Shown: positions 332 to 42,362, counted from the whole stretch's first letter. The stretch: 62,942 bases of DNA, filler included, from Fonticula-like sp. SCN 57-25 (GCA_001724245.1; 3 parts of 3 records of this genome joined end to end with filler, not necessarily neighbours in it); one strand, 5' to 3'. Translations and numbers: made by a program. Notes: a model not told the origin generated them from the letters alone.

Positions 332-2542
332 TTATCGACCAATCTGAGAAATCAAAAAAGAGAGAAACTCGGCAGAATGATGCGCATTTGCCTCGCTGCC
401 CCCCGTGGGGCCATAGTGGTCCCCCGATTCATCCGAGCGAATCAAAACTGGTCGATTTGCAAGGTAGCCGTCGGCGGCGCAGGCCTGCAGTTGCGCGCCA
501 TAAACGTGCGGCATCCACGGAGGCACACGGTAGTCTCCCTCCGCCGCGTACATCCAAATTGCTGCCAAGTGATGTTAAAATTACAATCACCAACATTCGC
601 ACGTTCAAAACGTACCAGGATACGCTGCGCTTCTATGAATGTTCTCCACTGGGCTAATGCTGCGCACATTCTCGCGAGCAACCGTATCGTTCAAAATATC
701 TCCCCACTCGGTAACATCCGTGGCTGCCAGCGGAAGCGACGGGTCACCCAGCCCGCCAATCAAGTCAACAAATGGCGATATCATCACAGCGGCGCGGAAC
801 GCAGACGGCGCTGAATTAATTGCGGCGCCAAGGAGCGCAGCTCCCGCACTGTGCGACATGGCGGCCACGCGGCCCCCTGACACGCCAGACAGATATTGAG
901 CAGCATTGAGCAGCTGATCAATCCGTTGCGTGTGTGCCAGGCCTCGAGCGGGCCCTTCTGCCACGTGTGCAAACACGATGCTCCACCCGCGCAACATCAG
1001 CGGAACAAATGAAAAGCGATAGTCGAGCGAAATCGGCTCGCCGTAGCAGCCGTATGATACGAGAAGAGCTGGCTGCTTGGCGCTGCCCGACGACGGTACA
1101 GGCTCCGTTCCAGCAATGGAGAGGGAAAGTTGCCCGGGAAGCGTAACCGTGTGCAGCCGTCCCTGCTCCTCGAGGACGGCGGCAATGCCAGGGTCGAGCT
1201 GCGATGCGCGCCCGCGATCATGCACAGTGCCAATCTCCAGATCAACATCAAGGGTGCGCGCCGCATGCACGGGTGACGAAAACAATAGGCGAACGTGCGG
1301 CGCATCATAGTCGGCGTTGGGGCCAAACGCCAGCGAGCCGACTGGCGGTAGGGAGAGGTCCGGGATCGATCGCTCGCCGGTGCGCAGATCAACGATGCAG
1401 AGCGTAGAGGCGCCCTTACTGAAAAAGCAAGCGCACTTTAGTCGCCTCAACAAAAAAAGCATACACGGAATCGCACCTTTTATAGATCACCGCCACATGA
1501 TTCCGAAACACAGTCGCATCGTCAACGAGATCAACCGACGCTCCCCTTGGTTTCGGCCCCGCCAGTTCGCGATCGCAGTGACCTATGACGCGTTAGCATG
1601 TCGGCGCGCAATAGAGAGCCCCTACCGCTTATCAATGCCGCCGGTGAGTCAGCGAGGACCACGCGAAGGTGTGAGCCGCCGCCCACATTGGTGACGGCTA
1701 CAAAGCCATGGTCCGTGTGCTCGACAAAAAGACGCGCGCCATCCACAAGCTCCGTCATAGGAACAAGGTTCACGAGAGAATGACCGTCGAATATAGAAAC
1801 CTAGAATACAGTGTCAGAAAGGTCGCGAAGGGAAACACGCTCATGTACCTTGCTCGTCGTCGGCGTGTTGCTGTTCACCATAAGAAATCGACCGTTCTTG
1901 GACCGTTGCACATCGACAACAAAGCGTGTGTCCTGCTCCTCGTAAAGCAGCCGCGGACCACGAGCGTCTCCGACCGCTAGTATATACACATGCGATGGGC
2001 GCTTGTCCGCGCCAAGCTGCGAAAACACCACATTCTTGCCGTCCGACGACCACTCGGCACTCACTACATCTCTAACAGGATCCGCAAGCCACTTTGAAGA
2101 CGTCATCGGCAGCTGCGACAGGAAAAGCGTCGAGCCCGAGGCATTCTCAACGCAAAACGCCCCTGCATCTTGGCGCGGCGTCAGTGACATGCGCGCCAGA
2201 TCGGCGCCATGAAATCGTGACCCCACAAAAACGGGCTCTCGCCGAGCAGCACCATCACGCCGCATCCTCCACACATCACCACTCGCTCCATCTGAGCTGT
2301 ACTCGTACACACCATTCTAGGCCTTCCGTCAGAAGACTAACACAGAAAAGCATAAGACGCACCGGCTCGGGCACGGCGCCGCCCCTCACCATCGCACCGA
2401 GCGCGAGATCGCGCATCTCTGAAACCAGCCCCCGATCCAACTGATCATAATATTGTGACACAATCTTGTTCTGCTGACGCATGGCAGCGGCTAGGGCTCT
2501 TGGCTGCCGGAGCGCTGCCCTCAGGGCGTCAACTCTGGACAT
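332..2542 (-). CDS. prolyl oligopeptidase family S9A (oligopeptidase B/PREPL-like), multi-exon
   Basis: Beta-propeller segments (AEWSSDGKNVVF, LLYEEQDTRFVVDV), the S9A motif PALLVSYGCYG, a nucleophile elbow AMSHSAGAALLGA, SPFVDL, EWGD, acid DYRV and His GDHYG, spread over ORFs 2276-2548, 1801-2310, 1531-1773, 605-1462 and 332-568. Confidence 0.85.
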
Positions 2543-2785
2543 CAGCACAACGAACGCTGCATGAACGATTCACCGCGGGCGAGAACACAGCGACAACACG
2601 TGATTGAAAAGTGACGGTGCAAAATGTACCAAGAACAAAGCCCTACAACGCCTAACCTGCGCTTGACAGGGGAGCTATCAGAGGTGAATGGGCACACAGC
2701 GCAAATCTGCACCAGCTGTTGGTGACTGAAATTGAATGAAATGTATTGAAAAATTAATGAAAAGCTACATCTATAAACGCTCGCT

Positions 2786-5700
2786 TCATGCATTTGAATC
2801 GAGCGCGCGTGAGACCTGGCGGTAGATCGCCTTGAGGTGCTCCATCGAATTTTGGGCCATTTTCTCCGTAAACGCCGAGAACGAGCTGGCGGGCACAAAC
2901 GCGTGCATGGAAGGGTACTTGTTGTCGTTCCCCTTGAGGACCTCGAGCGAGTTGACACCCGGGTACTGGTTGCAGAGCGTCAAGGCAACCTCAAAGAGGT
3001 ACTCGTAAAGGTCAGTCAGGTCGTCCCTCGCGGCGTCTGCGGGAATCCCCTGAGTCTGCAGGCTCCTATCATTTTCGGGGACATCGCGGAGCTCGTGCAG
3101 TTTTGAATGGAGGCGGCTACGCGTGGCCTTTTCCAAGGCGTCCTTGCAAGCGTCGGATTGGAGGATATGGTACGGCATGCGGCGAAGGATGGCAGCGTCA
3201 GCCGGGGGGAGGGTGCACTCCGGAAGCAGGTCCGCAAGGCCCAAGTGCTCAATCGTCCACTGGTTCGGCGACGCAGTGCGCGTCTGGTTCGACTTGACGG
3301 CGTTCGCAATAACACCCTTGATGTCCGAGATGTACACGAACGTCGTCGTCAGGTCCTCCACGGCGGCCCGCGCGAGGAAGGCGGAGAAGTCGCCAGGCAG
3401 CACCAGGGTCTGGGCCGACGACGACGGCGGCGGAGGCAAAATTTCTGACGCGCGTCTCTGCGAGACTGTACCTTCCGCGGCAGCGCTCACGAAAACAGCA
3501 TCGGTCTATAGGCGGCAACGTGAGCACGTGCTCAAGCACATGAGATAATCTGTGTCAACGTACCGGCCGTTGGTATGCGCCTCTGACGTTGGAGAGCTGG
3601 CCGAGCAGCGCCGAAATGCCGGCGGCGCGCTCGTCGTTCTGGAACAGCTCACCAATCTCGGGCACTGCAAACTGCGACAGCTTGCCGTCGCCCACGATGG
3701 CAGCGAGCTGCTGCTCGGTGGGCGAGAGGTCGGCCGGAATGGACTCGAGCAGCCGCGCGTCGTCACCAGGCAAGTCGCCAACGTCCTTGGCAAGCTGGCG
3801 CAGGTGGGAGAGCGCCACCAGCCATGCGTGCATGTCTTTGGGCGAGGACTCGGCGCGGCGGAGGCTCTCCGCCACAAAGTGCAGTCGAACAATGCGGCTG
3901 ACCATGCTCGCCACAACGGACGACGAGCTCAGGTGATCATCGAGGCAAATGGTGCGGGCGACCGGCTCGCGAACTAGCGAATCTGTGTTAAAAAACATGC
4001 GCGGCGGCATCCATGGCATCCGTACTAAATCCTCCGCTCGCGAGGGGCGGCAAGTACGTAAAGAGCGACTTGAATTTGGCGTCAGCCTGCATGCCGTTCA
4101 TCATTGCGATGCGAGAAAAGGCCGTCGTGCTCGGGGGCAAGTTGCGCGCCAGCAAGCGCGCGACGTCGACATTGACGGTATCCGCGAGCGGCGGCGCGTA
4201 GGCTTCCCACGCGTTCTCGGCAGCAAGGATGTCGTTGAAGGCCTGGTGTGCGCTCGTGCTGAGAGACGCGACAGTATCGCCCTTGGTCAGCGCAGAGTAA
4301 AAGGCTGGGTGCGTGCGCAGGCTAAAAAGAGAAAAAAGGCAAAGAGGTCAGGCCAAGAGCATCGCCAAATAAATTGCGCGTACGTGGCCGGCACGGGCAT
4401 GCACTGTACGCTGGTGATTCCCTCCTCTTTAGCATTAATCAGAAGGGGCGGCATCTCGGCGTCGCGGATCAGGCGCAGCGCGGCGCCATACCTTTCGGGC
4501 GACTGCTGGACGGCATAGAGATAGTCCACGGCGAATGAGAGAAGCATGCTGCTGATGACGTTGCGCAAGCTCAAGAAAATCATGTGGTTAAACTTGAGGT
4601 CTAGCTTGCGCGAGAAAATGGGGTCGATGGAAGCCTTCCTGTCACTGCCGTTGGCACTGCTTTGCTCCGCCACCGCGGCCTGCCACGGATACTGAGGCTC
4701 TGTCTGGCGCAGAGCGGACACGAGGCGGCCAAACAGGGCGTCCGTCACCTCGGGACGGCGCAGCATATCTCCGATGTTTTGCAACGGCAACGAAGACCCT
4801 TGGATCGAAATATTTGCCAATACCCGCTTGACAAGCCTGGTCTTGAACTCGTCAATTCCCGCATCATTTCTTTCAAGCGCTTTCTTCAGCACATCCGCGC
4901 GCTCAAGCGCGAGCAGGTCGCTGCGTCGACAAAAAGTTAGATTAACATAAACATAACAAGACAGAAGACGAACCGGATCGGGAACGTAAGCCGATGCAGG
5001 TGCTCCAGGGTAACAGGGTCCCAGCCACCGAAAAAGTTGAGGCTCCAATCAGCATTGAGCTTCGCGTCTGCGATGGAAGGAACGGTCATGACAACGGCAA
5101 TAACGCGGTTCACCGCGCCGAATTGCTTGGCCTTGCGAATGGCTTCATCAACGCAGTGGCAGATGAACGAGACCTTCTTGCTGTCCTGGCGGCCGTCGCA
5201 GCGAATAACAAGCGAATGCACCTCCTTGTTCTTATTCTCGACAAACGCCATGACCCTGGACTCGAGCTCGGTCTCGCGGGTAATCTCGGAAATCTCGACA
5301 ATAACGGTGCCTTGGGCTGCCTCGGGGGGTTTGAAGAGCGGAGTCGAAATAGGCGACTTGGTCAGCACGACCTTGCGCGCAATGCGGGCTGTACTGTCGG
5401 CAACACGCGCGCCGGCCACGGAACCCTCGCGAACAAGGTGCACTTCCGAAAGCGTCGGCGCAGACGACCTCGAATGCTCGAGCAGACCAGCAAGGTCATC
5501 AAAGGGATGCGACTCCGAGTACGCGTTGAGGAATTGTGTCCGCATTTCCGCAGCACCGCGACAAAGAACCGCGGATTCGGGCCACATGAGCGACGAGAGC
5601 AAATTAAAGGCGTGCGTATACTGCTCCTCCGAGGATGCAGAAGGATACTTGCGAACGACAACAGAGGCGATGGAAGGCAGCATCATATTCTCCGAAAAGC

Positions 5701-8700
5701 CTGCAAATGTCACTTCGTTCTTACGCGCCAACATCTTCCCCTCTGTGGTCTTGGCCATGCGAAGCCTCGTGATCGTTGTCTTGAGCTTAGAGAGAATATC
5801 AGTCTCCGCAGGCGTTCTGGTGAGCATATCCCACGACACAATGTGCTTCTCAAAGCGGTTGAGGAAGGGCGGCTGCAGGGAAGGAACGTCGCTTGAAGAC
5901 ACCATCACAATACAGCGGAAATTCTCATGAACGACTTGCCAGGGGCTCGAGTACTGGCCGTGAGCAATGTGACAGCATGCTTGCTGGCCAATAAGCTGGT
6001 AGTTCTGGTTCAGCATATCGTAGAGCGCGCCGTAGAGCCGGTCCAGCGACTTGAGGACGACAATGTCGCCGTTCTTCATGCACTCAATCACGCGTGACAC
6101 CTGGCGGAGCACGTAATCATCGCCAGCATCGGCCGGTAGCGGGCTTCCGTGCAAGACAACAAGCTCGGGCCTGCGAGTCTGATGTGCAGGCATATCAAGC
6201 ATACCCAAGAGGGGAACACTGTTGTTTGACTCTGAGATAAGAAGCAGATGCCGAGCCTGTTTGTCCGCCCAATTCATCCGGATGAGCTCCATCGTCGAAA
6301 GTGCGGGATCGGCCTTAAAACCAGGCAAAGGCCCCGCGATGTCTGCAACCACGGCTTCCCTCATGTCATATGCCATCTTCCCCTTACTCATGTCCTACTC
6401 GATTTTAGCATTGCAACATGTCGTTCGCAGACGCGTACCCTGCCACCAAAGTTGCGATCCATCAGCGTGATGATTTGGGAAATGACCTGCTCCGGACGAG
6501 GGTTGCTACCTAGCGCTCCGGCAATGCTCCGGAACATGGAGTAAAAGTCACGGTTGCCGTGAAAATTCGCATTCTCAGTTGCCTGGGTGTACTTGAGGTA
6601 TGCCTTGCTCAGAATTCTACGACGAGAAAAAATGCACATTAGAAAACAAAACCAAACATCAACCAAGACATACCCTGCAAACGTCTTAAACACCTCGCGG
6701 TTCCTGTCGGTCATGGTTACGTTCTTGGTGAACTCTGTCGCGGTTTTGATCAGGTCCTCCTGCGACGGGTCAGAAAGACTGATATGGACAGCGCGGTTCA
6801 TCTTGGCGGCATCGAGCGACCAATTACTGATTCCGACGACCGCCACGCGAGAAGAGTCGCCCGTTTGCCTCGAGCTGATGCTCTGTTCCAGCTTGGAGTG
6901 GAGCACCTTGAGCGGGTTGTGACGCGAGACGTCGGCAAGACCAACTTCGTCCAACAATACCACCGGCTGCTGCTTTGTGTTGTTCTTCAGAAGGCTCTCG
7001 GCCTTTGCGAAAATCTGCGAAACATTCAGACTTAGCACTAAAGTGGAGCGTAGAAAACGGAAGACGCACCTGCAACACGCCCTGGGACGTTGCAGTCTCT
7101 GTCCCCTGGAACGAATAGACGGAGATCGGAGTTATCTTCTTGACAAAGCCGTTGCCCGGCGAATTCGAATTGAGGTTGTTGCGAATGATCTGCATGGAGA
7201 GCGACTTGCTGCTGCCCGGCTTTCCAACGAGGAATACGGGCATCTTGAGCTGGATGCAGGTTGTCAAGATGAACACGTTCTCCAGCAACGCGCGGTTCTT
7301 CGCTGTCGTGCCAACGTTGGCAAGGTACATGTGGTCGATAAGGCCCCTCTGGTAGAACTGGCAAATCCTGGAAAAGGAAACAATGAGTCAAAGTGCAGAA
7401 AGAAACGTGTATAAACGCACTTCATAAACCGGGAATTCTCATATTCCTCAGCCTCACCCGAACCAAACAGAGGCGGAACGGTGATGAATTCCTTAAGTTG
7501 GTTCCACATCATCTGGATAAGTGAAAGGCGGTCCTCGATCCAGTGCAGACGAGCCACATAGCCCACGAACAATGCCAAAAAGAGCGGGCGAAGTTCATGG
7601 AGGGTAGGGAACTGCGCGATTAGCGGATCGGCGCCAAAGGATGTGGCGACGTCATCCTCCTGACAGGTAAAGTGCTGGTAGAGTTCGCTAAAGCGGGCCA
7701 CATCGCGAAGACTCACATTGTACGGCTCCATAAACTTGTCGCGGATCACGTCATGCGCAACGGCGACGATCCGTGCAAGATGCACGTTGCTCAATTTGGT
7801 GCTGCGGTACTTGAGCTGACCCATGCTTCCCTCGATGTACTTGAGCTCGTCTGCGCTTGTGAGCGCGCCAAAATCCCAGATATATTGGAACATAATTTCG
7901 GGCAGCGGCTGGACAGTGTACACCAACTTGGACATCTAAATGATGACGGTTACTAATCACAGCGAAAAAAACGAATCATCGCATACCTTGTTGGCAATGT
8001 CCTTTGGGGGCTCCAGACCCGCAAGGGGGCGCTTTGGCGTTTCCGCCTTGAGCTTGTAAGGGTTGCAAGCGCCGAGGAAGGTCAGGTTATGCGGGAGCGG
8101 CTGCGACATGTACGACCGGTGGCAGAGGACATCGTTGATGAGGCCCAGGTGACTACACGTGTTGATCTCGTCCAAAAAGACCCAGAGCTCACTGAATTAA
8201 AGCGTCAGCAAAAGAGCAATATCAAATGAAATTTCGTACTCATTGGTCGCCCGCGCCTCCTTGATCTTCTGCTCAATAAGGGCGTGAAGCGACTCCTCGG
8301 TGGTGCCCGCGTGGATATCGCGAACCTCAAAGGTTGCGTGGACAATGTTAGACAAGAATCGAACCAAACTGGTCTTGCCGCAACCTGTCTCGCCCATAAT
8401 GATCACAGGGATGCGCGAGCGGATTCGCAAAAGCACCATGCACATCTTTGTAAAGTTGTCATTCGTGAGCTGGTAGGCGTTGAGCTCAGCCGGAAGACGA
8501 GCTATTAAAGCAACAAAAATGAGCATAAGAACCGCGAATCTTGTTCGCAAATGCATACCATCAGGATTGTCGCAGATACACTTAAGAGCATCCAAATAAT
8601 CCGCATGATCTTTCATCTGCTGCTTGCCCATAATACCAGTCAAGAATGCGCGCAAGTTGGCGTCCTTAACTTGTGACATGTCGCCGATGACAGTGACCGT

Positions 8701-11700
8701 GGTGCGGCGCATGCCGTGGAACAGGAGCAGCGGGGTCTTGCGAGCGTCGTCGAACGTCTTAAAGGTCTGGAGACGCGATTCCGTGGAAACTTCGCCAGCG
8801 GCATTCCTCTGTAGCGCCTGAGCATCCGATGAAGAGGGTAGCATCAAAGAGATGGTCGACTGGAAAGGGAATGAAATGAGTGACACGCGGTGAGAGATGA
8901 CGCAGCGCAGCGTACCGCAAGAATCTGGTCGACGACAAGTGATCGCATTTTTGATTGGCCCTGGCTCAGCAAGTTCTGCACCGAAAAGAACTCACTGCTC
9001 GCGAAACGAAGCAGCTATGCAGCACATAAACGTCAGCCAATCCGCAAATGTTCCCTGTCAGCAGCGTACCATGTGGCTGCACATGCGAATCACCGACGTA
9101 ACAAGTGCAACTGTCGGCACGGCGTTTCTACCGGCAATCGCTTCATGGACGTGCTTGAAAATCAGCTCCCTTGCGCGGTCAGGTGCGGGCAAACTACGGG
9201 CCGGTCCCTAACACAAGGAGGAAAGTCGTAAGAACAGCGGAATAGCGAGGTCAATTCATACCGGTGCCCCACGAGAATAAATGTCGCTCTGATCGACGAG
9301 AGTGCGCGAGTCGTCGATGCGGAAAGCAAACTCGGTGCGTCCAGTTTTATCAAAGGAAGGTCCTTCAGCGCGCGCATGCAAAAAGTTGGCGACAACTGCA
9401 TTCGGGCTGGTGGGCAGCGAAGATACGCCAAAGCCTGCTTCCACCATCACGGCCTTGTTCTCATTCCAAACGAGCGGCTTCTTCTCGCGGGAAAGGTGAT
9501 GAAGGCACGACAGTTCACTCCAAAGAGGCGGCTCCCCGCCAGCAGCAACTTCAATCATCAACTCCATGAACTCTGAAAAAATGGCCGTCTTTCCTTGAGC
9601 AGAGACATGCCCGAGCATGATGAATTCGAGAAGCGTGTTGTTGAGCGTTGGCGCGTCCGCGACAGCCTGGATATCCAGATGAACACTGCAGTTGACGCCA
9701 AGCCTCAGGGATGAAAACGAGTTGACAAACTTTTGGCGCGCGTTCTCGCCGGACAGTGGAATGTACGCCGAAGCCTACACCATACAACGTTTAGGGATGC
9801 TCAGAAATCCAAATAAGCGTACCTTGCGCGGGCTGCTCGTGAGCTGCAGCTCGCGGATATAGGTTGATTTGCCCGTGCCAGCGTGGCTGGAATAAAATAC
9901 ATGAACGCGCGCAAGACCCTTGGCGAAAAGGGACTGCTGCAAATCCATGATCGATACGCTCTTGAGTAGCTGGTCAACTTCGGGCTCCTCCATGTGCTTG
10001 ATACCCTGCTCGTCAAACAGCAGATGCTGCCCCTTGCCGTCGCGGTCATCATCGGAAACGTACGGAAGTGACAGGACACAGAGCCGCCTGTTCTTGATGT
10101 TCTCCGAAATCAACCTCGCAAGCAGGTCGCGACACTTGTTCGACAGGGCCTCTCCATTAACAAGACTACCAAGATACGTACGGTTAGTCCAGACAACAAG
10201 ATAGGAGGCCGAACGCACCAAAAGAGGCGCGTGGGCTGCTTGTTGCAGCGGTTGAAGAAAATCTTCAACTCGTCTTCCGTCATCTCTGAGTGCGCAAACA
10301 ACAACTATAGCGCAATGTGAGACATGAAGCGAGTCGCTGGATAATGCGCGTACCTCGCCGGGAAGCGGAGGCGATAGAGCCTTGTTGTAGACAGCCATGA
10401 TGGCGGCATACATATCCGGTGCTCTGCCCACCTTCAGGTAGTTTGTCCCGTCCCAGTACTGCGAGGTCCCGGAAGTAAGAGGGCATCGATCGCAAAGGAC
10501 GCTGACAAACACCGACGCTGCAGCGAGAGATGCGCCGCTGGCGGTAGACCAGGCCTGCAATTGGACAGCAGTGAGGACCTTCTTTAGCGACATAGTGGAA
10601 GGTGCAGAAGGAGGTGTCAAACTGCCCTTGGAATCATGAATCGCCTTCTCGATGTTGGCGAGCGTGATGTTGTGACGCGCGCCGTGCGCGTAACGGAACA
10701 TCTGCTCCATGTCGTTCTTGGGATTCGGATCGCTGGAATAAGCAATCTTGCGTGCGAGAGCGCCAATGTTCTGATTGCAACACAAACGTTAAAATAAAAA
10801 CCATACAATACCATGCCATACCATGATCTGAACTGAAGTGAAGTAGTTCAATGTAGGAGCATCCTTTCGAGCAGCGTCGACTCCTTTCTCGTGGCGCTCA
10901 GCAATCTTCTTAAGATTATCCTGCAAGTTGGCAACATCCGTGGAATCCTGGCGAAGATCGATAGTCTCGTTGCGAAGGCCCGCAGCAAAAAGCGGCTCGC
11001 CGGCATCCTTGAGCTTGCACAGTAGTTCGATAATGTCGCTCAACGACTGCATCATCTGGGTAAACGTATCCAGGTCCATGTACTGGTCGTTGTTGCCAAG
11101 GACCTTGCGGCTACGAAGCAACAAAACTCGGCTTCTAAAGTCCTCCAGCTCGCTAGCAAAGATGCCGAAATCCTTTGACTCGGTGGCGCGCGGATTGTCA
11201 ACATTGAACTTGATCCAACCCTTTTCCAGGATCACCTTCACGCGCTTGATGGTGGTCTCCTCACTAAGTTCGCGCAAAAAAAAGTTAGAAGCCGATATAC
11301 TCTAACCGACTTGAAAGCGCACTTTGACTCGTTGCTGACCGCATCCGTGATGCTGGTAATGAGTGATTGACATTGGAGCAGATCTGGCTCGTGGCCCTCG
11401 GTCAAGAACTTGGACAGCTGCGGGAGGACTTGCTTCGACGACACTAACACCGTGCATCAGAAATACGAGCACAAATATTATAAACGCACGCTTGGCGTCC
11501 ATGACTGGAATGATGCCAAGGACGATGCTGATAAACTGCTGCATAGTGTGGTGCTGCACGACGTTGTCGTCAATCTCATTAAGCCAATTGGTCTGGCGAA
11601 GCGAATCTTTCTTCCCTTTAATAAGAGCCATCAACGGGTCAGCCTGGTGCAGGGCGAGGAAAGTTGACGTGGCCGAGTCGAGCCTGTCGGTGGAAATTTG

Positions 11701-14700
11701 CTAAACATTTGGTTAGTAATACTAATCGAAGCACGGCATTTCGCACCGACGCCAGCCAAGAAGCGGCTTGGTATACGTTTTGCACTGACTCGTCGTTCAC
11801 CTTCTGTACTCGGAAAATATACGTCAACATCAAACGCAAAAGAATCTGGTATTGTGGCCCGTACCTGCGCGTTTGCGTTCAGCTCGCTGATGTACTGCGC
11901 ATCGGCCGACGACGCGAAGAACGTAATGGCCCACTTGGCAGCTTCAAAGAGCTGGCGCCACCGCGCGGCGTCGCGTGCAATGCACAAGCGTTGAATGGCA
12001 ACATTAGAATAGGGCTTTAGCTTGAAGTGCTTGACAAACACATCGAGGTGGCTCGGCGAAAAGTTGCTGTCAAAGCAGTGGAGGTCGGAAAGGGTAACCG
12101 ACGCATCCTTCTCATCCGCCAGCTTTTCAATCAAAGACTTTAGTTGATTGGTCATTGTCTTGACAACAGAGTCGAGCTGCTTCAGGGATACGGCTGCGAC
12201 GGGTAGATTAGCGTCACGCCAGCGAATATTAACAACGTACGCTGCATTCCTTCAACATAGCGATCGACAAACGCTTTGAAAACGGCCGATTTAGCGAATG
12301 TAGCTTGCAATGAGGCTAGCTCCTCTTGTTGCTTCGTCAGCACAAAGCGGCTCCGCAAATCGGCCACGGTCATTCCATTATCCTAGAAAGGCATGTTAAA
12401 AAAGGCATGAAAACAAAGGGAACATACGGCCTTGGCAAGCTCTTTTTCCACCTCAAGGGAAGCACTGAGGAAGGAGCGAGTGAGGTCAATGTAGCTCCGC
12501 ATGCTCTCCCTGCGAACGTCGGCAGCAGCAATGATATCCGATGCGGATTGGACACCGGCTGCCAAACCTGCAGCAGAAATATTCGCAAAGAGCGGATACT
12601 TGTAGAATGACTCGATCGTCGAAATGCGTTGGGAAAGATATATCATATTGTCTTTAGAAACGTCGAGGCACCCATTGCAAATACGCTGGCATTCCTTCTG
12701 CAGGGCTGACACAATGCTCTCAACAAGCTTGAGCTGATTAGGCATAGGAGAGTTTGAACCATATTTGCTCACAAGCGCTTTCCAGTCCTTGAGGCTCACG
12801 GAGCAAAGAAGGCGGATGGCATCAGCCTGGGCAGTCAAGCGGCTCATCAAGAATTGCAAGGAGTCAAAAGCGTTCCGGCCCGGGATTTTGAAGATCTCCA
12901 CAAGGCGCTCCAGCACAAATTCCGTGGCCAAGGCATTCTGCATGACGATACTACCACTGCTCGGATCGCAAAGACGAGAAACATCAGCAACGATGTTGGG
13001 AACCAGAATGTGAAAGCGAATCAGCTTCTCTTGCAGTTTCGGCAACACTGTTCTGTAAAGCAAGCCGTCCTCGGTAGAAAGCATCACGGCAGGAAGCAGT
13101 GAAGAAGGGGCGACCGAGCGAACTATCTCCTCAAACTCGGACCTGATAAAGCCCGTAAACCAGTCGCCCGCAACATACAGCAACCTATTCAAGATCCTCA
13201 CACATGCATCCTGCTCTCTGAGTGAAACGGGTTGGAGTGAAGCGGGTGAAGCTTGGAACAGCATCAACATTGATTCTTTTCCCAACCTCGCCAAGGATTT
13301 TTCGGTCGAATCCTTCAAAAACGCCACCTGGTCAGCAAGACGCTTCCTCTGATCAATGAAATGCAAGGCAGCATTCCTATCCTTGATCCTATCACAAAGC
13401 TGCTCCACGTAGAAAACGTCCAGTCCGGCAGAATGCTCCTCGTATGCAACATGAAGAACAGCCAGCGGGAAGGAGAGCCCCAAAAAATGCATGCAGGCGG
13501 CCATGCTATCAACAAGCTTCCATAGGGCAGCTTGATCGAAGGAGGCTGCGTTCGGGTTGCCTGCGTCCATAATAGTAACGAGCATTGAAATAACGCCTTC
13601 CCACGCCGGCTGACCAACATAGCGTTCGGACGAAAAGTGTTCGCACGCGCGTAGAAGTTGTGGAAGCACATTTGACAGCCGCTCCAGCAGTTGGGGCTTG
13701 ACCAGGACTTCTGCACAAAGAGAGTTTGCGCAGTTCACGGCACCAGATAACACATGATGATCCAACGTAGTATTGCGACCTTCCTGCAAAACCTTTTCGA
13801 TGACATGAAAGGCGACGGCCTCAGGGATTCTCATCCTACCCTGCAACAGGTAGGCGAGGAAAAGTGGGTTCACTGTCAGAAGCGGATCGGGCTGATCGGG
13901 CCGATCGGGTTGACGCGACAAAAACTCGAGCAGACCTCGGACATAGTTGTGGGAGCTGATGCTCTGCAAAATATTGGGCGCATATTCAGAGCTCGAAATC
14001 ACCGACCGGTTCAAGACGCTCGCCGCAAAATTCTGAGCGGCACCAAGCCAATTCGATCCAGCGCGGTTATACTCGGCAGCGTAGTTTGTTGCGTACGCGA
14101 GCGCGTCATAGACGGCGGAAGCCATCCCCACATCATCATGCTGGGCAGCATAGGGATGGATTGTCACCAAAGAAGCCGGACGCGCCTTGAAGAACTGTGT
14201 ACCACGGCTGGAGTGCATTGTCACATCCACGTCTTTCTTGTTCAAGTATGAAGTCGGGATCAATAGACGGTGCACACTCACATTATCATCATCCGATGCA
14301 AACACCTGCGTGCTCTTTTCGATTCTCCTCTCGTTGGTCGTGCAACTGTGCAGCGAAGAGTCGCCAATCACATAGAGGAGGAGGTGCATGCGAGCAGGGA
14401 CGACGAGCGTGATATCATTCGAAGGAGTGGGGTGAGTGAGAACCGAGTTGCGAGACGCGCAGTAGCCTTGTGTATCCACGGCGAACGACACCTTGTAGGA
14501 TCCAACTTCCGACAACTGAATCGGAAAGTTCACCTTCAGTATTTCGCCTTGATCAAACATGCCGTCGACGACAAAAGAGGTGCCGCCTTCATGCTTCACG
14601 GTAGCAGAACACTTCCACTTGTTTCTCACCAGATTTCTAAACGACTTGTCCATCGTGATGAAAAGAGTGCATGCCAACGGCTCGTCAATATTAATCGCTT

Positions 14701-16897
14701 GCAAATCTGCCTTTGGCGTCCACTTGATAGAGAAGGTAGGGGCGTCCGGATGAGCAAGCGAAGGGAGCGAGATCGGCGCCGTCGCCTCGCCAAATCGGAA
14801 TTCTGCCTTTGTCGCCTTTACAGACGGCACATCAAAGACCGACTGCCCGTTCGTTGCGTCAAAGGCCTTGACTTTGCCTTCATCATTCCAAATTGAAACG
14901 GACATGCGCTCCGTCGAAGAAAAAATCGTAGACGAAGCCTTTTCCTTGACCGTCAATGTCCATCCTCCCCGCCGATTGGGGGTTGCCGAAGTAACAAGCT
15001 CGGGCAGGATGCACAAGCAGCGATTCTGCGAGGCTGCCTCGATGTTGTCGTACAGAATCACCGCCACCTTGGTCAGGACTGGCTCGACCGTTGCAGGGAC
15101 GCTAGCCTCAACAGACGCGTCCCTTTTGAACGACATCGTGTGGTCGACAGCGCTAGGCGCAGAGCCAACCCGAAGAATGACAGGAACGTGATCGGGAATC
15201 GCAGGCTTGAAGGAAGCCTTGCACATCCAGCTCATACCATCACGCTCTTTTTCCCAAACGAGTGAAGCGATGACCTTTTCAGGAGGAATGTACAAGTCGG
15301 CCACCTCGTCATAAAGAACCTGGCTTCCAAATTTGACCACTACGGAAGCCAAAGTGGCCGCCGCGGACACCGGAAGAGACTTGAGCATAGTCTTGGAATT
15401 TCCTGGATCGAGTTTCACCAACTTGTCCATCACAAAAAACTCCATGCTCTCCTTTGCCGCGAGCTCGCGCGAGAGCTCGAGTTCGAAAATTAAGCCGCTC
15501 TTTGTCACCTTCTTGGCAAATGACAAGACACTCAAAGCACTATTTCCCGGGGCCGACACCTCGCTCGTGTTGCTGAATTGAGGCGGAGTTGGCTGAGCCA
15601 GCTGCTTGTTTCCATCGCCGGCGACATCCGCGCGAGATACCTCGCCGGTCTGCGTAGCACCGCCGCTGCGCCCTTCAAGGCGGGCGTCTCTGAAACCTTG
15701 CGGTTCGAATCCTGCGGCTGCTCATCGGTGCTCGATGTCGACGCCAGCTTCTTGGGGTCTTTCTTACCTGCGCCGCTCCCAGCGCTGATCTCAGTAGGCT
15801 TGTTCGCAGTAGAGGACGCATTCGCCGCCTTCTTGCTGCCCGCGGGCTTCGCATCAACCACATCTTCGCCACTCTGGGCACCAGCAGCAGGCTGCTTGGC
15901 CGTCGTCTTGCTGTCCGCAGGCTTCTTGTCATCGATGACCTCGCCACTCTTGGCACCTACAGCAGGCTTCTGAGTCTTGGTGGACGCTTCAGTCGCCTCT
16001 TGCTTGCTGCTTGTCGGCTGCGCAGACTGCGTGGTCTCGGTGGATGCCTCGGCCACCTCTTGCTTGGCGCTCGCGGGCTCGGAGCTGTCGGCAGAAGCAT
16101 TCAAAGCATTGCTGCCAGTGGCGGGCTTGGCTTCGTCGTCGCCCAGGGGTGTGGCTTCAGAGGCCGGACGCGTCGAGTCGGGGATTGAGGTCATCTCCTC
16201 AGTGTGCGCTGCGGTCAAAGGCTGCGGCTCGCGTGAGTTCGAAGGTTTGGCGGTCGCACCGTCAGCGACCTGCGGATCGCTCGGAGCGACCGGGTTGTCG
16301 CCTGCGGCAGGGAAACCGCCTACCTGTGGCGATGCCACCTGACCATCGGCCGCACTGCCGTTTGACGACGCGCCCGCTGTAGCGGTGTCTTGTACCACAA
16401 CAGCAGGCGGGGCGCGGGCCGCGAAAGGCCACACGCGCGGACGATCTGCCGCGGGAGCCAAAGGACCAGACAAACGCCTCTCCGCTGGAGTCATATTCAC
16501 TTCAATGGGCAGCAGCGATGGTGTGATGGGCTGCGCATGTTCGTCGCTCCAGTTGAGCGGCGGGAGGCCGCGGTCGGTGTGGAGCGCGGCGTTGGTTGTG
16601 GGGTACCAAATGGAGGGAGTCCAGTCGATGTCGTGCACAAGCCCACGCATAAAAATTGGATTCATGGCGGAATATTCGGTATCCACAAGCACCTTCATGG
16701 CGCCATCCTACGCGAGTGGTCAGCATTGAGCAGGTCATGTCGACATTACGCACGATTGGCTCTGCAGCCGAAACAGAGAGCGTGGAGGATCGCCCAAATG
16801 TACCGGAAACTGTGCACAAGTTAGCAAAAACGCGTCATAAGAAAGCTCAAAACGCACGGCCTGAACCGCCGCCCGGTATCGGGCGCTGCGGGTTCAT
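2786..16897 (-). CDS. giant RNF213/mysterin-like dynein-related AAA+ ATPase, multi-exon
   Basis: RNF213-type motifs occur in order: SSHAGTGKS, IPVIIMGETGCGKT, WVFLDEIN, ACNPY, VSLRDVAR, LLENVF, PVFLVGKPGSSKSLS, LLDEVGLA, NPLKVLH, GISNWSLDAAKMNRA, LYDMLNQNY, FLNRFEKH. The ORFs can be joined by short GT-AG introns. The inferred first exon is MNPQRPIPGGGSG with ATG at 16897. Confidence 0.85.
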
Positions 16898-17048
16898 CTT
16901 GGCGGCGAAAGGGAAACTGCCGTGCAGCCTGCGGCCTGCAGTCTGCCTGCCACCTGTCTGCCAACAAAAAGTTTGCAAGCGTGATTCGGCCAATCACAAA
17001 GCTTGATCAATTCAGTTTGCAGTTTGCCGTGTGGCGTCATCGACAACA
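16898..17048. promoter_or_regulatory. putative bidirectional promoter between the RNF213-like and RNF14-like genes
   Basis: About 150 bp separates the two divergent start codons. The gap contains a CCAAT box (GGCCAATCA, ~16988) and CAGTTTGCAGTTTGC (17013-17027). Confidence 0.55.
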
Positions 17049-18359
17049 ATGGAGCGGAGGCTCGACGAGGCGCGAGCCCTGGAGGCGATTTACGGGCCGG
17101 ACTCCTTCGTCTACCAGGTGGTCTCTTCGAATGAAGTCAAAGGTCAGCTTAGCCTGAGTGCTCGCCTTCCCGATGAAGGCGTTATTATTCGAGCCGGCAC
17201 GCTTCCCGACCGCACGCTGCGTCATCTGCCGCCCCTCGTCGTGAGCTTTACGCTACCAGAAAACTACCCTGACCGCGAGCCGCCCACGGTGCGACTTTCG
17301 TGCTCGTGGCTTCCAGTGGACGATATCGACGCAATTGTGCAGGAAGCGGCGGATCTCTTTGTCGAAGGCTCGGAAAGCGTCTTTGTCATGGTCGACCGCA
17401 TTGTGGAGCGCGCGTCCGATGTGGCGGCCGGCGGCATCTCCTTGGACAAACGTGCGCATCCTGCCCACCTGTCATCTTCTCACTTATCTGTCTTTATCCA
17501 GTGACCGTGACCGACAATGTGCGCGCCGCTACGCTTGCCCTGCAAAACCTGGAGGCGTTTGATCGCACCGCGCGCCAAAAGGTGCGACTCTGCCTCATCC
17601 TCGCCGCTGCTAACCCTCGCAAAGGAATTTGACGAGAGCACGGTGACGTGCATGATTTGCTTTTCCTCATATGAAGGCTCGCGCTGCCTCATGCTGAGCC
17701 AGTGCGAGCACTCATTCTGCCGCGACTGCCTCGGCGGCCTTGTTGAGGTTGCCATCAAGGACGGCAGCTGGGCGGCCCTCGTGTGCCCCGACATGGGCTG
17801 CAAGAAGCAACTCATGCCCGTGGATGTGCAGCAAATTGTGCCCGCCGACCGCCTTGAAAAGTACGAGGAAGTCATGCTGCAAACGGCGCTGCGAACCATG
17901 TCGGACCTTGTGTACTGCCCGCGGCCAATATGCCGGTCGCCCGTCATCCGCGCCGACGCCGCCGACAAGCTCTGCATTTGCGGCAGCTGCAGCTTTGTCT
18001 TTTGCGCCATGTGTTTTAGGTCGTTCCACGGGCCGTCGGACTGCCGAGCCGACTCGGGGATTATCAGAGAGTTCATGGCGGCCGACGAGGACCACCGCCA
18101 GCAGCTTGAGATTATGTACGGCCAGGCGACATTTAGGCGAGCACTGGAAGAGTTTGCCAGCGTCGAGTTCCTTAAGAGCACGTCGACAAAGTGCCCCAAC
18201 TGTTTGACAAACGTCCACAAGATTGAGGGGTGCAACAAGATGCACTGCTCCATCTGCGACACCAACTTTTGCTATCTCTGCGGGGCAAAGCTCGGCGCAA
18301 TACCGTACCGCCACTTTGACCAAGACACGTCACCGTGCCACATGCGCCTCTTTGACTAG
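17049..18359 (+). CDS. RNF14: RWD-domain RBR E3 ubiquitin ligase (RNF14/ARA54/Itt1-like)
   Basis: RWD domain (EARALEAIY, HLPPL, LPENYP..PP), RING1 (CMICF...CEHSFCRDC...CPDMGC), IBR (YCPRPIC...CGSCSFVFCAMC..FHG) and RING2 (CPNC...KIEGCNKMHCSICDTNFCYLC) with the catalytic Cys retained. Confidence 0.9.
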
Positions 18360-18484: not shown

Positions 18485-21173
18485 TCACATTGCCTCGTCG
18501 TCCTGCGCCTCCCCCTGAGCCTCGCCCGCATGGCCCACGAGCGCCCAGTCGTCCTGGTCCATCTCCTGCTCCATGCCCGCGTGATCAGTACACCACATAA
18601 GCCCCTCATTGACGAGCACAACAACGTTTGGCGCCAGCTGCCCCGCCGGCACAGTGAGCGGCTCTGGCTTGTCGCGCGTGATGCGGACGACGCCTTCGCC
18701 AGCAGCCGACACGCTCTTGATCATGCGCAGCCGCTGCCGGTCGACAAGGCTCCCCTTGCTGACAATGACAACATGCTCGGTCGTGACGGCAAACATCCAC
18801 GGCACGTCTGCGCCGCCACCGGACCCGCCCTTGAGCTTGGCGAACCCGCGGGCGGCCGCCGGTGCGGCCATCCACTCGACGAACGCGAGCATTGACTCGT
18901 GCGCAAACCGCCCACCATCAACCTTTTTGAGGAGCGCGGCGGCGGTCGCCTCGCGCGCGTTGTACGGCCGCAAGACGCCATCTACGGCAAAGAAGCGCGG
19001 CGTCCGCACACGCTGCACGAGCGTGCCTGACCCGCCGCCGGCGACCATGTCGGCCGTGTTCTTGATGCCCGTCGTGATGTGCGACGCGCCGTCAAACACG
19101 CCAACGACCGGCTTGGTGACGAGGCCGGCCACGCCCTTGCCGACGCCCTTGAAAAAGCCGCCGACGCCCTCTGACTTGGCGCCCTGCACGGGCTGCAAAA
19201 ACACGCCGGTGACACCGCTGCCGACGCCCATGGCAATAGACTTTGCGCCCGCCGCCATGCCCGTCAGCACGTTGGTCGCCGAGCCTGAGCCGGTGGACGC
19301 GCGCGCCGCCTTGTCGCGGCGCCGCGATTCTTGAAAGTCGGCGTCAAAGGTGGCCTCGGCGAGACCCGTGCCGACCGACGCAGTGATGCGCGAAATGCCG
19401 TCCACGAGGCCAAACACAGAGTTTTTCAGGAGCGACGCCGTGCCGCGGCCGACGCCCTTGGCAAAGTCCTGCGGTGAGCGCACGATGCCCTGGTACGGCT
19501 CGTAGAAAAAGTCGTCCACGCCCGAAGCGAGATTGGAGAAAAAGTTGACTGGGTTGCCGAGCGTGTCGACCGACAGCACGACCTTGTACAGCTCGGCGAC
19601 AACCTGCTTGGCATAGTGGTTGCCCAGCCGCGTGCCAATCTCGGGCATCGGCATGGACGCGTGAACCAGCTCGAGCGCGTTGAACCCGAGCGGCGCGTCG
19701 ACCACGTTGCCGAGCGCCGTGCTCAGCACGTTGAACACGATGCCGAGCGTGCGCACAATGAGCCGCGACGACTGCCGTGCGCGCTCGTGGTCCACCTTGC
19801 TTCCGGATGAACGCACAAAGGAAAGGTCGAGGCGGATCGGCTGCAGCTGCAGCACCTCAAAGTACACCTCGCGCGCCGCCGCTTCAGTCGCCTCACTCGA
19901 GGGCCGGATCGACGCGAGCGCCTTGCTCAGTGCCGTCGAGTTGCCTTCGCCAATCCAGTTGGCGAGCACCGTGCCGGCGTCCGAGGCGCCGTCCTGCGCG
20001 TCGCGGCCGCCCTCCTCGAGCGAGTCGCGCAGCATCTTGACGAGCCGCACGACGACCGCCTCCTCCACCTTGATCGACAGCTCCTTGAGCAGGATGCTCG
20101 CGTAGCGCACGTGCAGCACGCCCATCGAAGACGTTGCCTTGCCAAGGTCGACAATGATGACGGCGCGCAGCAGCGGGTCCTCTTCGGGGCTCGGGAGCCG
20201 CGCTGAAGAGGCCTTGCTACGCGCATTGCCGGCGCGCAGCGCGCGAGAAAGCATGACGGGGTACAGCGGCTCGTGCAGCTGGTTGTCCACCTGGATCGCC
20301 TGCAGCTGCACCTCGAGGCTTGCCTCGCTGTTGTGCGCCATCAGCATCTTGACCATCGGTCGCGTCAGCCGAATGTACATGAGCTCGCGCGGAGCCGCGC
20401 TCGAGATCGACAGGCCAATGCCGGGGAGCGACAGCGAAACGGAAAGCACATTCCGCAGCGGACTGCTGTCGCTCGAAAAGGTCGTCATGGTCGTCTGCAT
20501 CGTGCTCAGCCGCGACGTCGACTTTGACGACGACCGCATATCGGGCGTGTTGTACTCGATGTGGATATTGCGCACGCCCTGCTCGAGCGTCGTGGTCAAA
20601 ATATACTTTTTCCCGCCCGCCCGTAGCTTGCTGCGCTTCCCGATGGCCGCCGGGTCGACCGTCACATGCTCGCCGCTGCACCAGAAATCGAGGCGGCGGA
20701 GCGGCGCCGACGGCGCGTCCCAGCAGTAGGGCAGCACCTGACGCGGCCCGACCGTGTGCGTCTCGTGGCCGTGACGCATCGCCGCGGCCGGAAGTGCCTC
20801 GTCGCTTGCGCTCTCCATCCGCTCAGCGACCCACTCGGCCGACGGCTGGCCAAAGTCAAACGACTCGCGCGTGTAGTTGCGGATGCACAGCGGGGCAGTC
20901 GCACGGAGGCCGTGCACGACAATGCGGATCGTCGAGGCAACCTCGCTGCCGTCGTCGTCACATGAGATTGAAAGGCGCATAACGCTCCCGCCATTGTTGC
21001 GCGCAATGCGCACAAACATGTCACCCATTACGGACGCGGCGATCGGCGCGGACCAGCCGACAGAGTCCGCCGTCTGGATGCAAAAGTAGCGCTTGGCGGC
21101 GTCCAGTGCCCTAAAGTGCGGCACGGCGTGCTCATTCGGGCGAAGCTGCAGCATACACCCTTCGGTAACTGCT
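18485..21173 (-). CDS. VPS13: VPS13 family lipid-transfer protein, C-terminal part (5' truncated at contig end)
   Basis: PYCWDAP, LPGIGLSI..RELMY, IQVDNQL..LYPV, YFEVLQLQPI, DTLGNPV..DFFYEPYQG, PVQGAKSEGVGGFFKGVGKG..KPVVG and RVRTPR, followed by a PH-like tail. Confidence 0.93.
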
Positions 21174-21273
21174 NNNNNNNNNNNNNNNNNNNNNNNNNNN
21201 NNNNNNNNNNNNNNNNNTTAATTAATTAANNNNNNNNNNNNNNNNNNNNNNNNNNNNNNNNNNNNNNNNNNNN
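21174..21273. other. artificial contig-joining spacer (N44-TTAATTAATTAA-N44)
   Basis: Exactly 100 nt with a central 12-mer that gives stops in all six frames. Genes on both sides are cut off. Confidence 0.97.
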
Positions 21274-39200: not shown

Positions 39201-39670
39201 GGGAACCGGTTCACTGCTACCAATGGCGTGCTGTGCTCAAGCGAGCGGCAAATGCTTTCTAGCTGCTGATGCGAGGTCAGCATTGCTACCATCCGCTCCT
39301 CGAGCAGCGCATAGCGTGGCAGGTCGATCTTGAGCGAGTGAAGATGCGCATCCGCAGCCGCTTGCAGGTACACCTCCACGTCGTTTGTCAAAGCAAGGTC
39401 ACACGCAATCTTTCCGTTTGCATCGCGCATGTCGAGGGGAGCCCCCAGCCGTACGAGAAGGCGCGCGATCTCATAGTAGCCGAGGCACGCGGCCCAATGC
39501 AGCGGGGTGCGACCTATCGAGTCGACCTCGGCCAGCACTTCGGCGCTGTTGGCCAATTGCGCCACGCGCTCAAACTGACCGTCAGCGACTGCATGGTGAA
39601 GGATCGAGGCGGAGCTATCCTCCTTGAGCTCTCCCGCCAAGTGCGCGATCGACTCGTCCTCGTCCTGCAT
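33253..39670 (-). CDS. ankyrin + coiled coil + sacsin/NO VEIN-like GHKL ATPase + C-terminal DUF3883 (NOV_C) protein
   Basis: Ankyrin GRTPLHWAA. An intron at ~39119-39167 joins it in frame (AEK-AMTEFL) to FVVELIQNADDN, NNEVGF, ALCDIGGSTK, HIGRKGVGFKSVF and FCYLP..FIVQADF..SRQDI..NLWL. The C-terminus has LGYDFEY..FEVKG..ISDNEW. Confidence 0.82.
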
Positions 39671-42262: not shown

Positions 42263-42362
42263 NNNNNNNNNNNNNNNNNNNNNNNNNNNNNNNNNNNNNN
42301 NNNNNNTTAATTAATTAANNNNNNNNNNNNNNNNNNNNNNNNNNNNNNNNNNNNNNNNNNNN
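42263..42362. other. artificial contig-joining spacer (N44-TTAATTAATTAA-N44)
   Basis: Identical 100-nt design to the first spacer. Confidence 0.97.

Follow-up and report, generated by a model that had tools for sequence, protein, structure and literature searches.

The locus and its gene model

The window, by which we mean the whole stretch of DNA analysed (62,942 nucleotides, or 63 kb), carries on its minus strand a relative of RNF213, the human immune and moyamoya-disease protein. The coding region of this RNF213-family gene occupies 2786..16698 and consists of 23 exons; once 22 GT..AG introns of 43–62 nt are spliced out, a single frame of 4,254 codons stays open up to a TGA (2786..2788) that is read directly and is followed by an A+T-rich stretch. 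The predicted 5′ end of the coding region is best supported at ATG 16698, and not at 16897, where an earlier account made from the sequence alone (the sequence-only reading) had placed it; 16897 marks where a short, unrelated frame ends. Coding capacity was judged by held-out codon usage, expressed in bits per codon, for the model frame against the other two frames. Between residues ~2058 and 3682 the spliced product gives single collinear BLASTP matches to relatives, which validates the splicing across this interval. Exons 1–7 are without homology support, and the donors at 11750 (GTCGGT) and 4973 (GTTCGT) deviate from the usual GTAYG/GTGCG, so the N-terminal gene model may hold errors. The only runs of N in the window (21174–21273 and 42263–42362) lie neither inside nor next to the gene. 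We consider this locus to be a real, apparently intact gene encoding a highly diverged family member, a judgement that shares the probability of about 0.6 given below to our explanation as a whole; from its sequence, the gene would be expected to be expressed and the protein to hydrolyse ATP.

Past the stop, a 244-nt spacer (2542..2785, minus strand) with negative codon usage in all three frames precedes a gene of the S9 prolyl-oligopeptidase family on the same strand, with matches to both Peptidase_S9_N (E 4.2e-8) and Peptidase_S9 (E 3.4e-11) in its frames. Fusion of this peptidase to the RNF213-family gene is ruled out by the stop, the non-coding-like spacer and the peptidase's own ATG. On the other side, across a shared intergenic region of ~330 bp, lies a head-to-head neighbour encoding an RNF14/Itt1-like E3 of the RWD plus RING-IBR-RING type, with an RWD frame at 17007–17501 (plus strand, E 5e-14) and an IBR/RING frame at 17511–18356 (plus strand, IBR E 5.5e-16, together with RING families).

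The AAA+ core and the N-terminal arm

The AAA+ core (residues ~2058–3597; 4976..10173, minus strand) is homologous to RNF213-family proteins. Against giant relatives it gives single BLASTP matches with E values of 1e-132 to 1e-168 at 28–37% identity, and for three of its exons, searches of solved structures bring up RNF213 chains (E 3e-14 to 3e-17). For the exon carrying the AAA4 Walker B motif, all nine PDB sequences matched at E≤0.01 are RNF213, and a residue-by-residue alignment to the RNF213 chain 9jwg_A spans the Walker B stretch. When near-invariant columns are defined as those at least 90% identical in 68 relatives, 152 of 175 (87%) are conserved in this protein, the lysine of each Walker A motif and the D-E pair of each Walker B motif among them. 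No orthologue was found in the libraries, the best non-self match being 41% identical over one exon.

Both catalytic Walker A/B pairs named in the sequence-only reading are present on the minus strand. In AAA3, the Walker A motif GETGCGKT (residues 2561–2568; 8371..8394; Pfam AAA_5, E 1e-5), in which G, E, G, C, G, K and T are all near-invariant in relatives, is followed by the Walker B motif VFLDEIN (residues 2616–2622; 8161..8181), in which D2619 and E2620 are likewise near-invariant. AAA4 has the Walker A motif GKPGSSKS (residues 2900–2907; 7202..7225; Pfam AAA_7, E 1.3e-3) and the Walker B motif VLLDEVG (residues 2970–2976; 6940..6960), after which comes an RNF213-type signature, ...PLKVLH...GISNW..D.AKMNR. 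Upstream of the AAA3 site, a P-loop-like HAGTGKST (residues 2154–2161; 9862..9885, minus strand) is possibly the AAA2 nucleotide site, to go by its position only. The conserved part ends at DWSLNFFGGW (residues 3573–3582; 5021..5050, minus strand), which hhalign aligns to the W..NFL.GW block of relatives and in which W3582 is near-invariant. The protein thus has the two features by which the RNF213 family can be recognised, namely a Walker A and a Walker B motif in each of AAA3 and AAA4, with residues near-invariant in the 68 relatives, and a single-chain dynein-like AAA+ core with RNF213-specific sequence. Conservation of this kind points to an AAA3/AAA4 core with two hydrolysis-competent sites under constraint. 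The earlier description of an RNF213-like AAA+ motor is therefore right as to family and sites, although "motor" is loose wording, since AAA1 of RNF213 lacks both Walker motifs and processive motor action is not expected, according to the available text of PMC7311170.

Six AAA units in one chain, and matches to Pfam AAA_5 and AAA_7, are also found in midasin/Rea1 and the dynein heavy chain. The exon carrying the AAA3 P-loop weakly matches all six midasin P-loops (summed E 1e-17), but this likeness is limited to the P-loop neighbourhood, and the remaining core exons find no solved structure other than RNF213. No MIDAS/VWA domain, stalk or microtubule-binding domain was detected by Pfam, tail exons included, and the C-terminal MIDAS (VWA) that follows a D/E-rich linker in midasin has no equivalent here.

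With vertebrate RNF213/mysterin (6TAX, 7OIK, 8S24, 9JWG) the protein shares the giant single-chain AAA+ core, the intact AAA3 and AAA4 Walker motifs, the RNF213-specific sequence after the AAA4 Walker B motif and an arm of ~2,000 residues before the core, but the arm itself has no detectable similarity to its vertebrate counterpart. Exon 1 (15769..16698, minus strand; start codon putative) encodes ~310 low-complexity, probably disordered residues rich in A/S/T/P/K/E; it lies inside a 391-codon open frame with codon usage of +0.21 bits/codon, against −0.49 and −0.47 in the other frames, and matches no Pfam family. Exon 2 (residues 311–1405; 12428..15768, minus strand) is without detectable relatives: it has no Pfam family, no PDB sequence match at E≤1, no usable ESM Atlas match and no BLAST match among 166 relatives. 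The only likeness found to the RNF213 arm, stalk or linker is a weak similarity of residues ~1516–1885 (10690..12005, minus strand) to the collinear pre-core stretch of some relatives (phmmer E 1.3e-6 to 1e-2 against P0033, P0043, P0025 and others). A CBM20 domain has been reported for human RNF213; none was found in this protein by Pfam or PDB sequence matches.

The C-terminal tail and the absent ligase module

The last core exon ends at 4974, and what remains is a tail of 657 residues (3598–4254; 2789..4975, minus strand) in exons 20–23, close to the ~700 codons first estimated. In codon usage the four tail exons are on a par with held-out core exons, scoring +0.31 to +0.42 bits/codon in the model frame and below zero in the others. 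Such normal usage, together with three introns of the tail's own, indicates that the tail is not a recent read-through.

The ligase module, that is, the scaffold, the RING position, the RZ finger and the C-terminal domain, is absent from the gene. In mouse RNF213 the hinge (3406–3588) is followed by the E3 module (3589–4926), with its RING at 3940–3999, and then by the C-terminal domain, as given in the accessible part of PMC7311170; the protein described here is without this ~1,740-residue hinge-to-CTD region. Only ~654–657 residues follow its core, where a ligase scaffold and C-terminal domain would occupy ~1,350–1,950. The accessible part of PMC11549300 lists C4505, H4509, C4525 and C4528 as zinc ligands and C4516 and H4537 as catalytic residues of the human RZ finger, and none of these has a counterpart. 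The lack of a RING- or RZ-like Cys/His cluster, already remarked in the sequence-only reading, was upheld by every search: among the tail's residues are 5 Cys and 13 His, and no stretch of 60 residues has more than 2 Cys; a regex search of the minus-strand frames between 2786 and 17000 found no C3HC4/RING-H2 pattern; Pfam, run at E≤1 on all exons and overlapping minus-strand frames, gave no RING family and no RZ (PF20173); and an RZ profile built from 25 relatives, which matches 44 of 167 sequences, matched neither the gene model nor any of the six frames of the whole window (best E 0.4–0.57). With tblastn, the tails of 28 relatives matched the window only at 5275–4973. We also dismissed the idea that a Cys-rich frame at 2587–2703 (C-x2-C ... 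CC-x-C) conceals a finger, since it falls within the spacer and in a different reading frame, Pfam assigns it to no family, and codon usage is negative in every frame of the stretch. A RING or RZ finger in a missed exon, the outcome named at the outset as one that would overturn the reading, is excluded by geometry, since all introns measure 43–62 nt and the next gene lies 244 nt past the stop; the sole plausible splice that bypasses the stop (donor ~2815, acceptor ~2724) adds only 15 codons before another stop. The protein is thus predicted to have no E3 ubiquitin-ligase activity, whether auto-ubiquitylation or towards lipid A/LPS.

One could envision that the ligase module is encoded elsewhere, as a separate gene in the manner of a split RNF213 or displaced by misassembly, so that the holo-enzyme would still be an E3. 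The visible sequence amounts to only 63 kb, which leaves room for such a gene. However, there is no N run in or beside the gene, the frame closes with its TGA and A+T-rich stretch shortly before the next gene, neither RZ nor tail homology occurs anywhere in the window, and none of the 68 relatives is split at the core/tail point, their short forms resembling the front of the usual tail. We thus think this arrangement very unlikely. It is more improbable still that the divergently arranged RNF14/Itt1-like neighbour acts in trans as the protein's ligase. Its RWD and IBR frames do lie right beside the start of the gene, on the opposite strand, but in eukaryotes the proximity of two genes says little about shared function, and genes of the RNF14 type are conserved and serve housekeeping functions in translation quality control.

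Most of the tail is an orphan. BLASTP similarity to the 166 relatives, among which giant proteins were tested as tail relatives, reaches residue 3723 at the furthest, and residues 3724–4254 (531 aa; 2789..4544, minus strand) resemble no sequence found: PDB sequences gave nothing below E 0.15, the tail exons match no Pfam family, the last exon recovered only the window's own sequence from a library of 5.8 billion proteins (those of 131–419 and 420–2,000 residues), and its best score in the ESM Atlas, 0.85, is at chance level. The sequence-only reading had proposed a different C-terminal part, and an unrecognisable tail agrees with this. Tail segments starting past residue 3600 or 3690, compared by hhalign with two alignments of relatives' tails, gave probabilities of 0.1–0.9%; AlphaFold2 models made without an alignment were mostly helical but too poor for comparison (the last exon reached a mean pLDDT of 39.2, exon 20 one of 46.3). 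A greedy hhalign run on residues 3500–4254 returned 82–94%, with the signal confined to about the first 150 aligned columns, and we do not read this as tail homology because the segments past 3600 and 3690 give nothing. The method itself detects diverged tails, since a short tail used as a positive control (P0141) was recognised at 96.6%. We conclude that the tail, ~530–650 residues, is probably lineage-specific and helical; as the structure models are of low confidence, it may still be distantly similar in fold to the hinge or E3-back domain of RNF213.

Relatives, origin and possible function

Tails of 1,350–1,935 residues are carried by 53 of the 68 relatives that cover at least 80% of the core, as against ~654 residues in the window's protein. 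Shorter tails do occur, and in 9 of the 10 checked they align to the first part of ordinary tails, the tenth being P0141. RZ-bearing giants in genome and metagenome libraries, such as P0025, P0026 and P0022, have cores collinear with that of the window's protein (~30% identity over ~1,500 residues), but their RZ finger lies 839–1,210 residues past the core-end anchor in tails of 1,450–1,990 residues, whereas the window's protein ends at 755. They share with it the lack of a Pfam RING, which was absent from all 12 close relatives scanned (0/12 with a hit), and so a RING does not define the wider RNF213 family. A well-supported clade (39 of 69 rows, support 98; e.g., P0019, P0028 and P0043) is also like the window's protein in that neither Pfam nor the profile detects an RZ or RING; however, its tails align with RZ-bearing ones across 1,625 columns (E 4e-158) and keep a C-x-C-G ... 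C-P-x-C knuckle at the RZ position, without the G-N-C-G cysteine, while the window's protein does not keep the scaffold. As even this clade retains scaffold and degenerate knuckle, the window's gene stands alone, among those examined, in lacking the module.

The sequence-only reading had called the ligase-less form possibly ancestral, and the trees (69 rows in FastTree, 37 in IQ-TREE, midpoint root) do not bear this out. RZ-bearing relatives occur on both sides of the midpoint root, and the window's protein itself sits on a long, unplaced basal branch in both trees. Its terminal branch exceeds the median three- to fourfold (2.13 vs 0.57 in FastTree; 1.72 vs 0.6 in IQ-TREE), and an AU test (p 0.294) is compatible with a place either inside or outside the RZ-profile-negative clade. 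With RZ-bearing lineages flanking the root and a long branch of no settled place, loss or replacement of the module is a simpler reading than ancestral absence.

A branch of this length would also fit relaxed constraint, and the gene could be a truncated paralogue drifting to loss, in which a rearrangement removed the 3′ third and a tail without selected function was captured or read through. An orphan tail without relatives and low-confidence folding of both modelled tail exons count in its favour. Against this stand 4,254 codons in 23 exons without stop or frameshift, GT..AG borders kept in 22 of 22 introns, the 87% of near-invariant core columns that survive, every Walker residue among them, and a tail that is itself interrupted by three introns and shows ordinary codon usage. 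We thus consider decay unlikely.

Instead, we favour, with a probability of about 0.6, the explanation that a diverged RNF213-family protein lost its entire ubiquitin-ligase module, that a lineage-specific tail now stands in its place, and that the protein has an ATP-gated output without a built-in E3. Because the core appears to keep two hydrolysis-competent sites under constraint, we infer that in the cell the protein serves as a scaffold or a conformational switch gated by ATP. Its long N-terminal arm would bind targets and the orphan tail would deliver the output, for example through self-assembly or recruitment of partners in trans. There is precedent for ligase-independent, ATPase-dependent activity of the RNF213 chassis: in the accessible part of PMC11549300, RNF213 with its RZ finger inactivated still coats Toxoplasma vacuoles, but needs its ATPase to do so.

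In studies of RNF213 the AAA+ core is viewed as regulating the E3 module, with ATP binding reported to turn the ligase on (PMC12075652, abstract). A natural family member with both ATPase sites but no ligase scaffold would suggest that the core has an output of its own, an idea that fits the dependence of Toxoplasma vacuole coats on ATPase and not on RZ activity, at least as set out in what is accessible of PMC11549300. The ligase-less protein would then serve as a compact comparison partner for dissecting core function. A broader and more doubtful proposition, which we put forward tentatively, is that the RNF213 AAA+ chassis is a modular platform on which, in this lineage, an effector of ~530 residues without relation to the complete ligase module has taken that module's place, giving a natural separation-of-function form whose ATP-gated core would work, perhaps through self-assembly on a target or by bringing in a partner, with no ubiquitin transfer of its own; if true, the core would have a task that does not depend on the ligase and that predates LPS ubiquitylation or extends beyond it.

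Two side observations concern the wider family, and neither was described in the literature searched, most subscription journals lying outside that search. Giants of RNF213 type are common outside vertebrates, with 1,156 library representatives at E≤0.001 (phmmer on the full library with one exon as query), many of them proteins of 3,800–4,900 residues, and in one large clade the zinc knuckle lacks the cysteine that would act as nucleophile.

An RNF213-type core that keeps its two catalytic sites

The minus strand carries a chain of long open frames running from about 16700 down to 2786, joined across short introns whose donors are of the GTAYG/GTGCG type and whose acceptors read YAG. Splicing out 22 introns (43-62 nt, all GT..AG; two donors, GTCGGT at 11750 and GTTCGT at 4973, are off-pattern) yields a single stop-free frame of 4,254 codons from a putative ATG at 16698 to a TGA at 2788-2786. 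BLASTP with the spliced product returned single collinear matches to many giant proteins over residues about 2058-3682 (E 1e-132 to 1e-168, 28-37% identity), which validates the splicing of exons 8-20; homology support within exons 1-7 is limited to weak similarity at residues 1516-1885. G+C is 48-63% across the window, the DNA is eukaryotic, and the only N runs (21174-21273 and 42263-42362) lie far from the gene.

The 485-residue exon (6394-4940) matched nine solved RNF213 sequences (E 3e-14), and for the exon carrying the AAA4 Walker B motif all nine PDB sequences at E≤0.01 were RNF213 (best 3.2e-17), in an alignment spanning VVLLDEVGLA...PLKVLH...GISNWSLDAAKMNRA. The AAA3 Walker A exon matched RNF213 over 200 residues (E 4e-14) and also, through its P-loop alone, the six P-loops of midasin; Pfam gave only generic AAA_5/AAA_7. 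With the 485-residue exon, phmmer against 1.84 billion representatives picked up 1,156 proteins at E≤0.001, of which 483 pass 1e-10 and 48 pass 1e-30, the best being mostly proteins of 3,800-4,900 residues; because the best non-self match is 41% identical, that library holds no close orthologue. Both catalytic Walker A/B pairs noted in the sequence-only reading (GETGCGKT/FLDEIN and GKPGSSKS/LLDEVG) are present in the gene model, which keeps 152 of the 175 near-invariant columns (identity of 90% or more across 68 relatives), every Walker residue included, as compared to 75-84% of these columns in the least conserved relatives. We conclude that the protein's core is of the RNF213 type and has both its catalytic sites.

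Codon usage was scored with a model built from other frames in the window, with tail and core exons held out. In the model frame the four tail exons scored +0.31 to +0.42 bits per codon, with negative values in the other two frames, and the held-out core exons gave a similar +0.15 to +0.45. The gene is apparently intact, and a decaying truncated paralogue is unlikely alongside coding-like tail exons and retained Walker residues. Residues 1 to about 310 (15769-16698, minus) form a low-complexity A/S/T/P/K/E stretch containing KQE.AEAST.T-type near-repeats; here open frame and codon usage favor coding, and the start codon is putative. The N-terminal arm at residues about 375-830 (14153-15520, minus) appears strand-rich by eye and may include beta-sandwich modules; it had neither a Pfam nor a PDB match. 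A CBM20 carbohydrate-binding domain is reported for the N-terminal part of human RNF213 (PMC11549300).

An orphan tail in place of the ligase module

After the last core exon, 657 residues remain (the tail, residues 3598-4254). In the comparison with relatives, this protein has 654 residues past the core, as compared to 1,350-1,935 in 53 of 68 relatives with at least 80% core coverage; four others have 935-1,263 residues, and 11 have tails shorter than this one. When ten of these tails were checked, nine aligned at E 1e-54 or better with the front of ordinary tails and so look like cut gene calls, the tenth being that of P0141, a long-branch relative.

The tail holds 5 Cys in total, at most 2 per 60 residues, versus 4-7 per 60 in relatives' RING and RZ regions. 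RING/RZ patterns occur in no minus-strand frame across the gene, and Pfam at E≤1 on the tail exons and overlapping minus-strand frames gave no family, only two sub-threshold chance matches. An RZ profile made from 25 relatives, which picks out 44 of 167 sequences searched, had no match in the gene model or in six-frame pieces of the window (best E 0.4-0.57), and tblastn with the tails of 28 relatives against the entire window matched only 5275-4973, the known core end. The proposed absence of RING and RZ fingers after the core held up in these searches, and we conclude that the ligase module is missing from this protein. A module encoded elsewhere, beyond the 63-kb window searched, is quite improbable. 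The introns are too small for a missed exon, and the sole plausible splice bypassing the stop would add 15 codons; an A+T-rich stretch directly follows the TGA, codon usage over 2785-2570 (216 nt scored) is negative in every frame, and the ATG of the next gene lies 244 nt downstream.

When 18 frame pieces were compared with 166 relatives by BLASTP, eight core pieces matched, and the four tail and six N-terminal pieces did not. Similarity past position 3560 is confined by phmmer to the first 110-125 residues, and BLASTP similarity to relatives reaches residue 3723 at furthest. When four tail segments were compared as profiles with two alignments of relatives' tails (14 RZ-bearing, 14 RZ-negative), probabilities were 0.1-0.9%, while the positive control, the diverged tail of P0141, was detected at 96.6%. 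Against PDB sequences the tail gave nothing under E 0.15, and against the ESM Atlas scores at chance level; the last exon matched only its own sequence in the length ranges searched of a 5.8-billion-protein library. AlphaFold2 models of two tail exons are mostly helical, with pLDDT (39 and 46) too low for fold comparison.

Origin of the ligase-less form and its possible function

Pfam found RZ in 4 of 12 close relatives and RING in none. A 39-row clade (support 98; P0019, P0028, P0043 and other relatives) is negative by both the RZ profile and Pfam, yet its tails align with those of RZ-bearing proteins across 1,625 columns (E 4e-158), keeping the full ligase scaffold. At the RZ position these proteins keep a C-x-C-G ... 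C-P-x-C knuckle but lack the G-N-C-G cysteine, which aligns with the catalytic one, and they look like pseudo-RZ forms. Failing the RZ profile is thus common, whereas absence of the scaffold was seen in the window's gene alone.

The ancestral state suggested earlier is not shown by the data. In two trees the end branch of the window's protein is 1.72-2.13 long versus a median of about 0.6, and in both the protein sits near the base, unresolved, next to another long branch; RZ-bearing rows lie on either side of the midpoint root. An AU test did not reject grouping it with the RZ-negative clade (p 0.294). It is simpler to suppose that a fast-evolving lineage lost or replaced the ligase module.

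Our overall reading, to which we give a probability of about 60%, is that this apparently intact RNF213-family gene, having no ligase module, would encode a switch or scaffold gated by ATP, its output passing through the orphan tail or self-assembly rather than built-in ubiquitin transfer. In mouse RNF213, PMC7311170 places the AAA core at 1775-3405, the hinge at 3406-3588 and the E3 module at 3589-4926 (RING 3940-3999), and does not expect AAA1 to work as a processive motor. The 2024 EMBO Reports paper (PMC11549300) names the RZ ligands and describes coats on Toxoplasma vacuoles for which the ATPase is required and RZ activity dispensable. Our literature search, with most subscription journals outside its range, found no account of a ligase-less form or of RNF213-type proteins from microbial eukaryotes.

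Neighboring genes

The same-strand flanks are separate genes by domain match: upstream, VPS13 adaptor-binding and C-terminal domains (18488-21154, minus), and downstream, the propeller (1804-2316, minus) and catalytic (608-1486, minus) domains of an S9 prolyl oligopeptidase. The first frame of the peptidase gene (2279-2569, minus, starting MSRVDAL...) had no Pfam match and may be an N-terminal extension or a separate small exon. Both N runs share one layout (44 N, 12 bases, 44 N), the first adjoining the VPS13 frame at its upper end.

Head-to-head with the RNF213-type gene, about 330 bp from its start, a plus-strand gene at 17007-18356 encodes an RWD domain (E 5e-14) and, after it, RING-IBR-RING (IBR E 5.5e-16), the domain order of an RNF14/Itt1-type E3 ligase. 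A bidirectional promoter is probably common to both genes; any functional link would be pure speculation, and that this neighbor supplies the ligase, for all its proximity and E3 architecture, is very hard to credit.

Further along, Sacsin-domain (E 1.5e-14) and NO VEIN C-terminal domain (E 4e-9) frames at 33256-39210 (minus) probably belong to another giant ATPase gene of the sacsin/NOV type, about 16 kb along the joined window from the RNF213-type gene. Myosin motor-domain frames at 26298-30154 (minus), followed downstream on that strand by a Ras-association (RA) frame (E 3e-13), may form a single myosin with a C-terminal RA domain.
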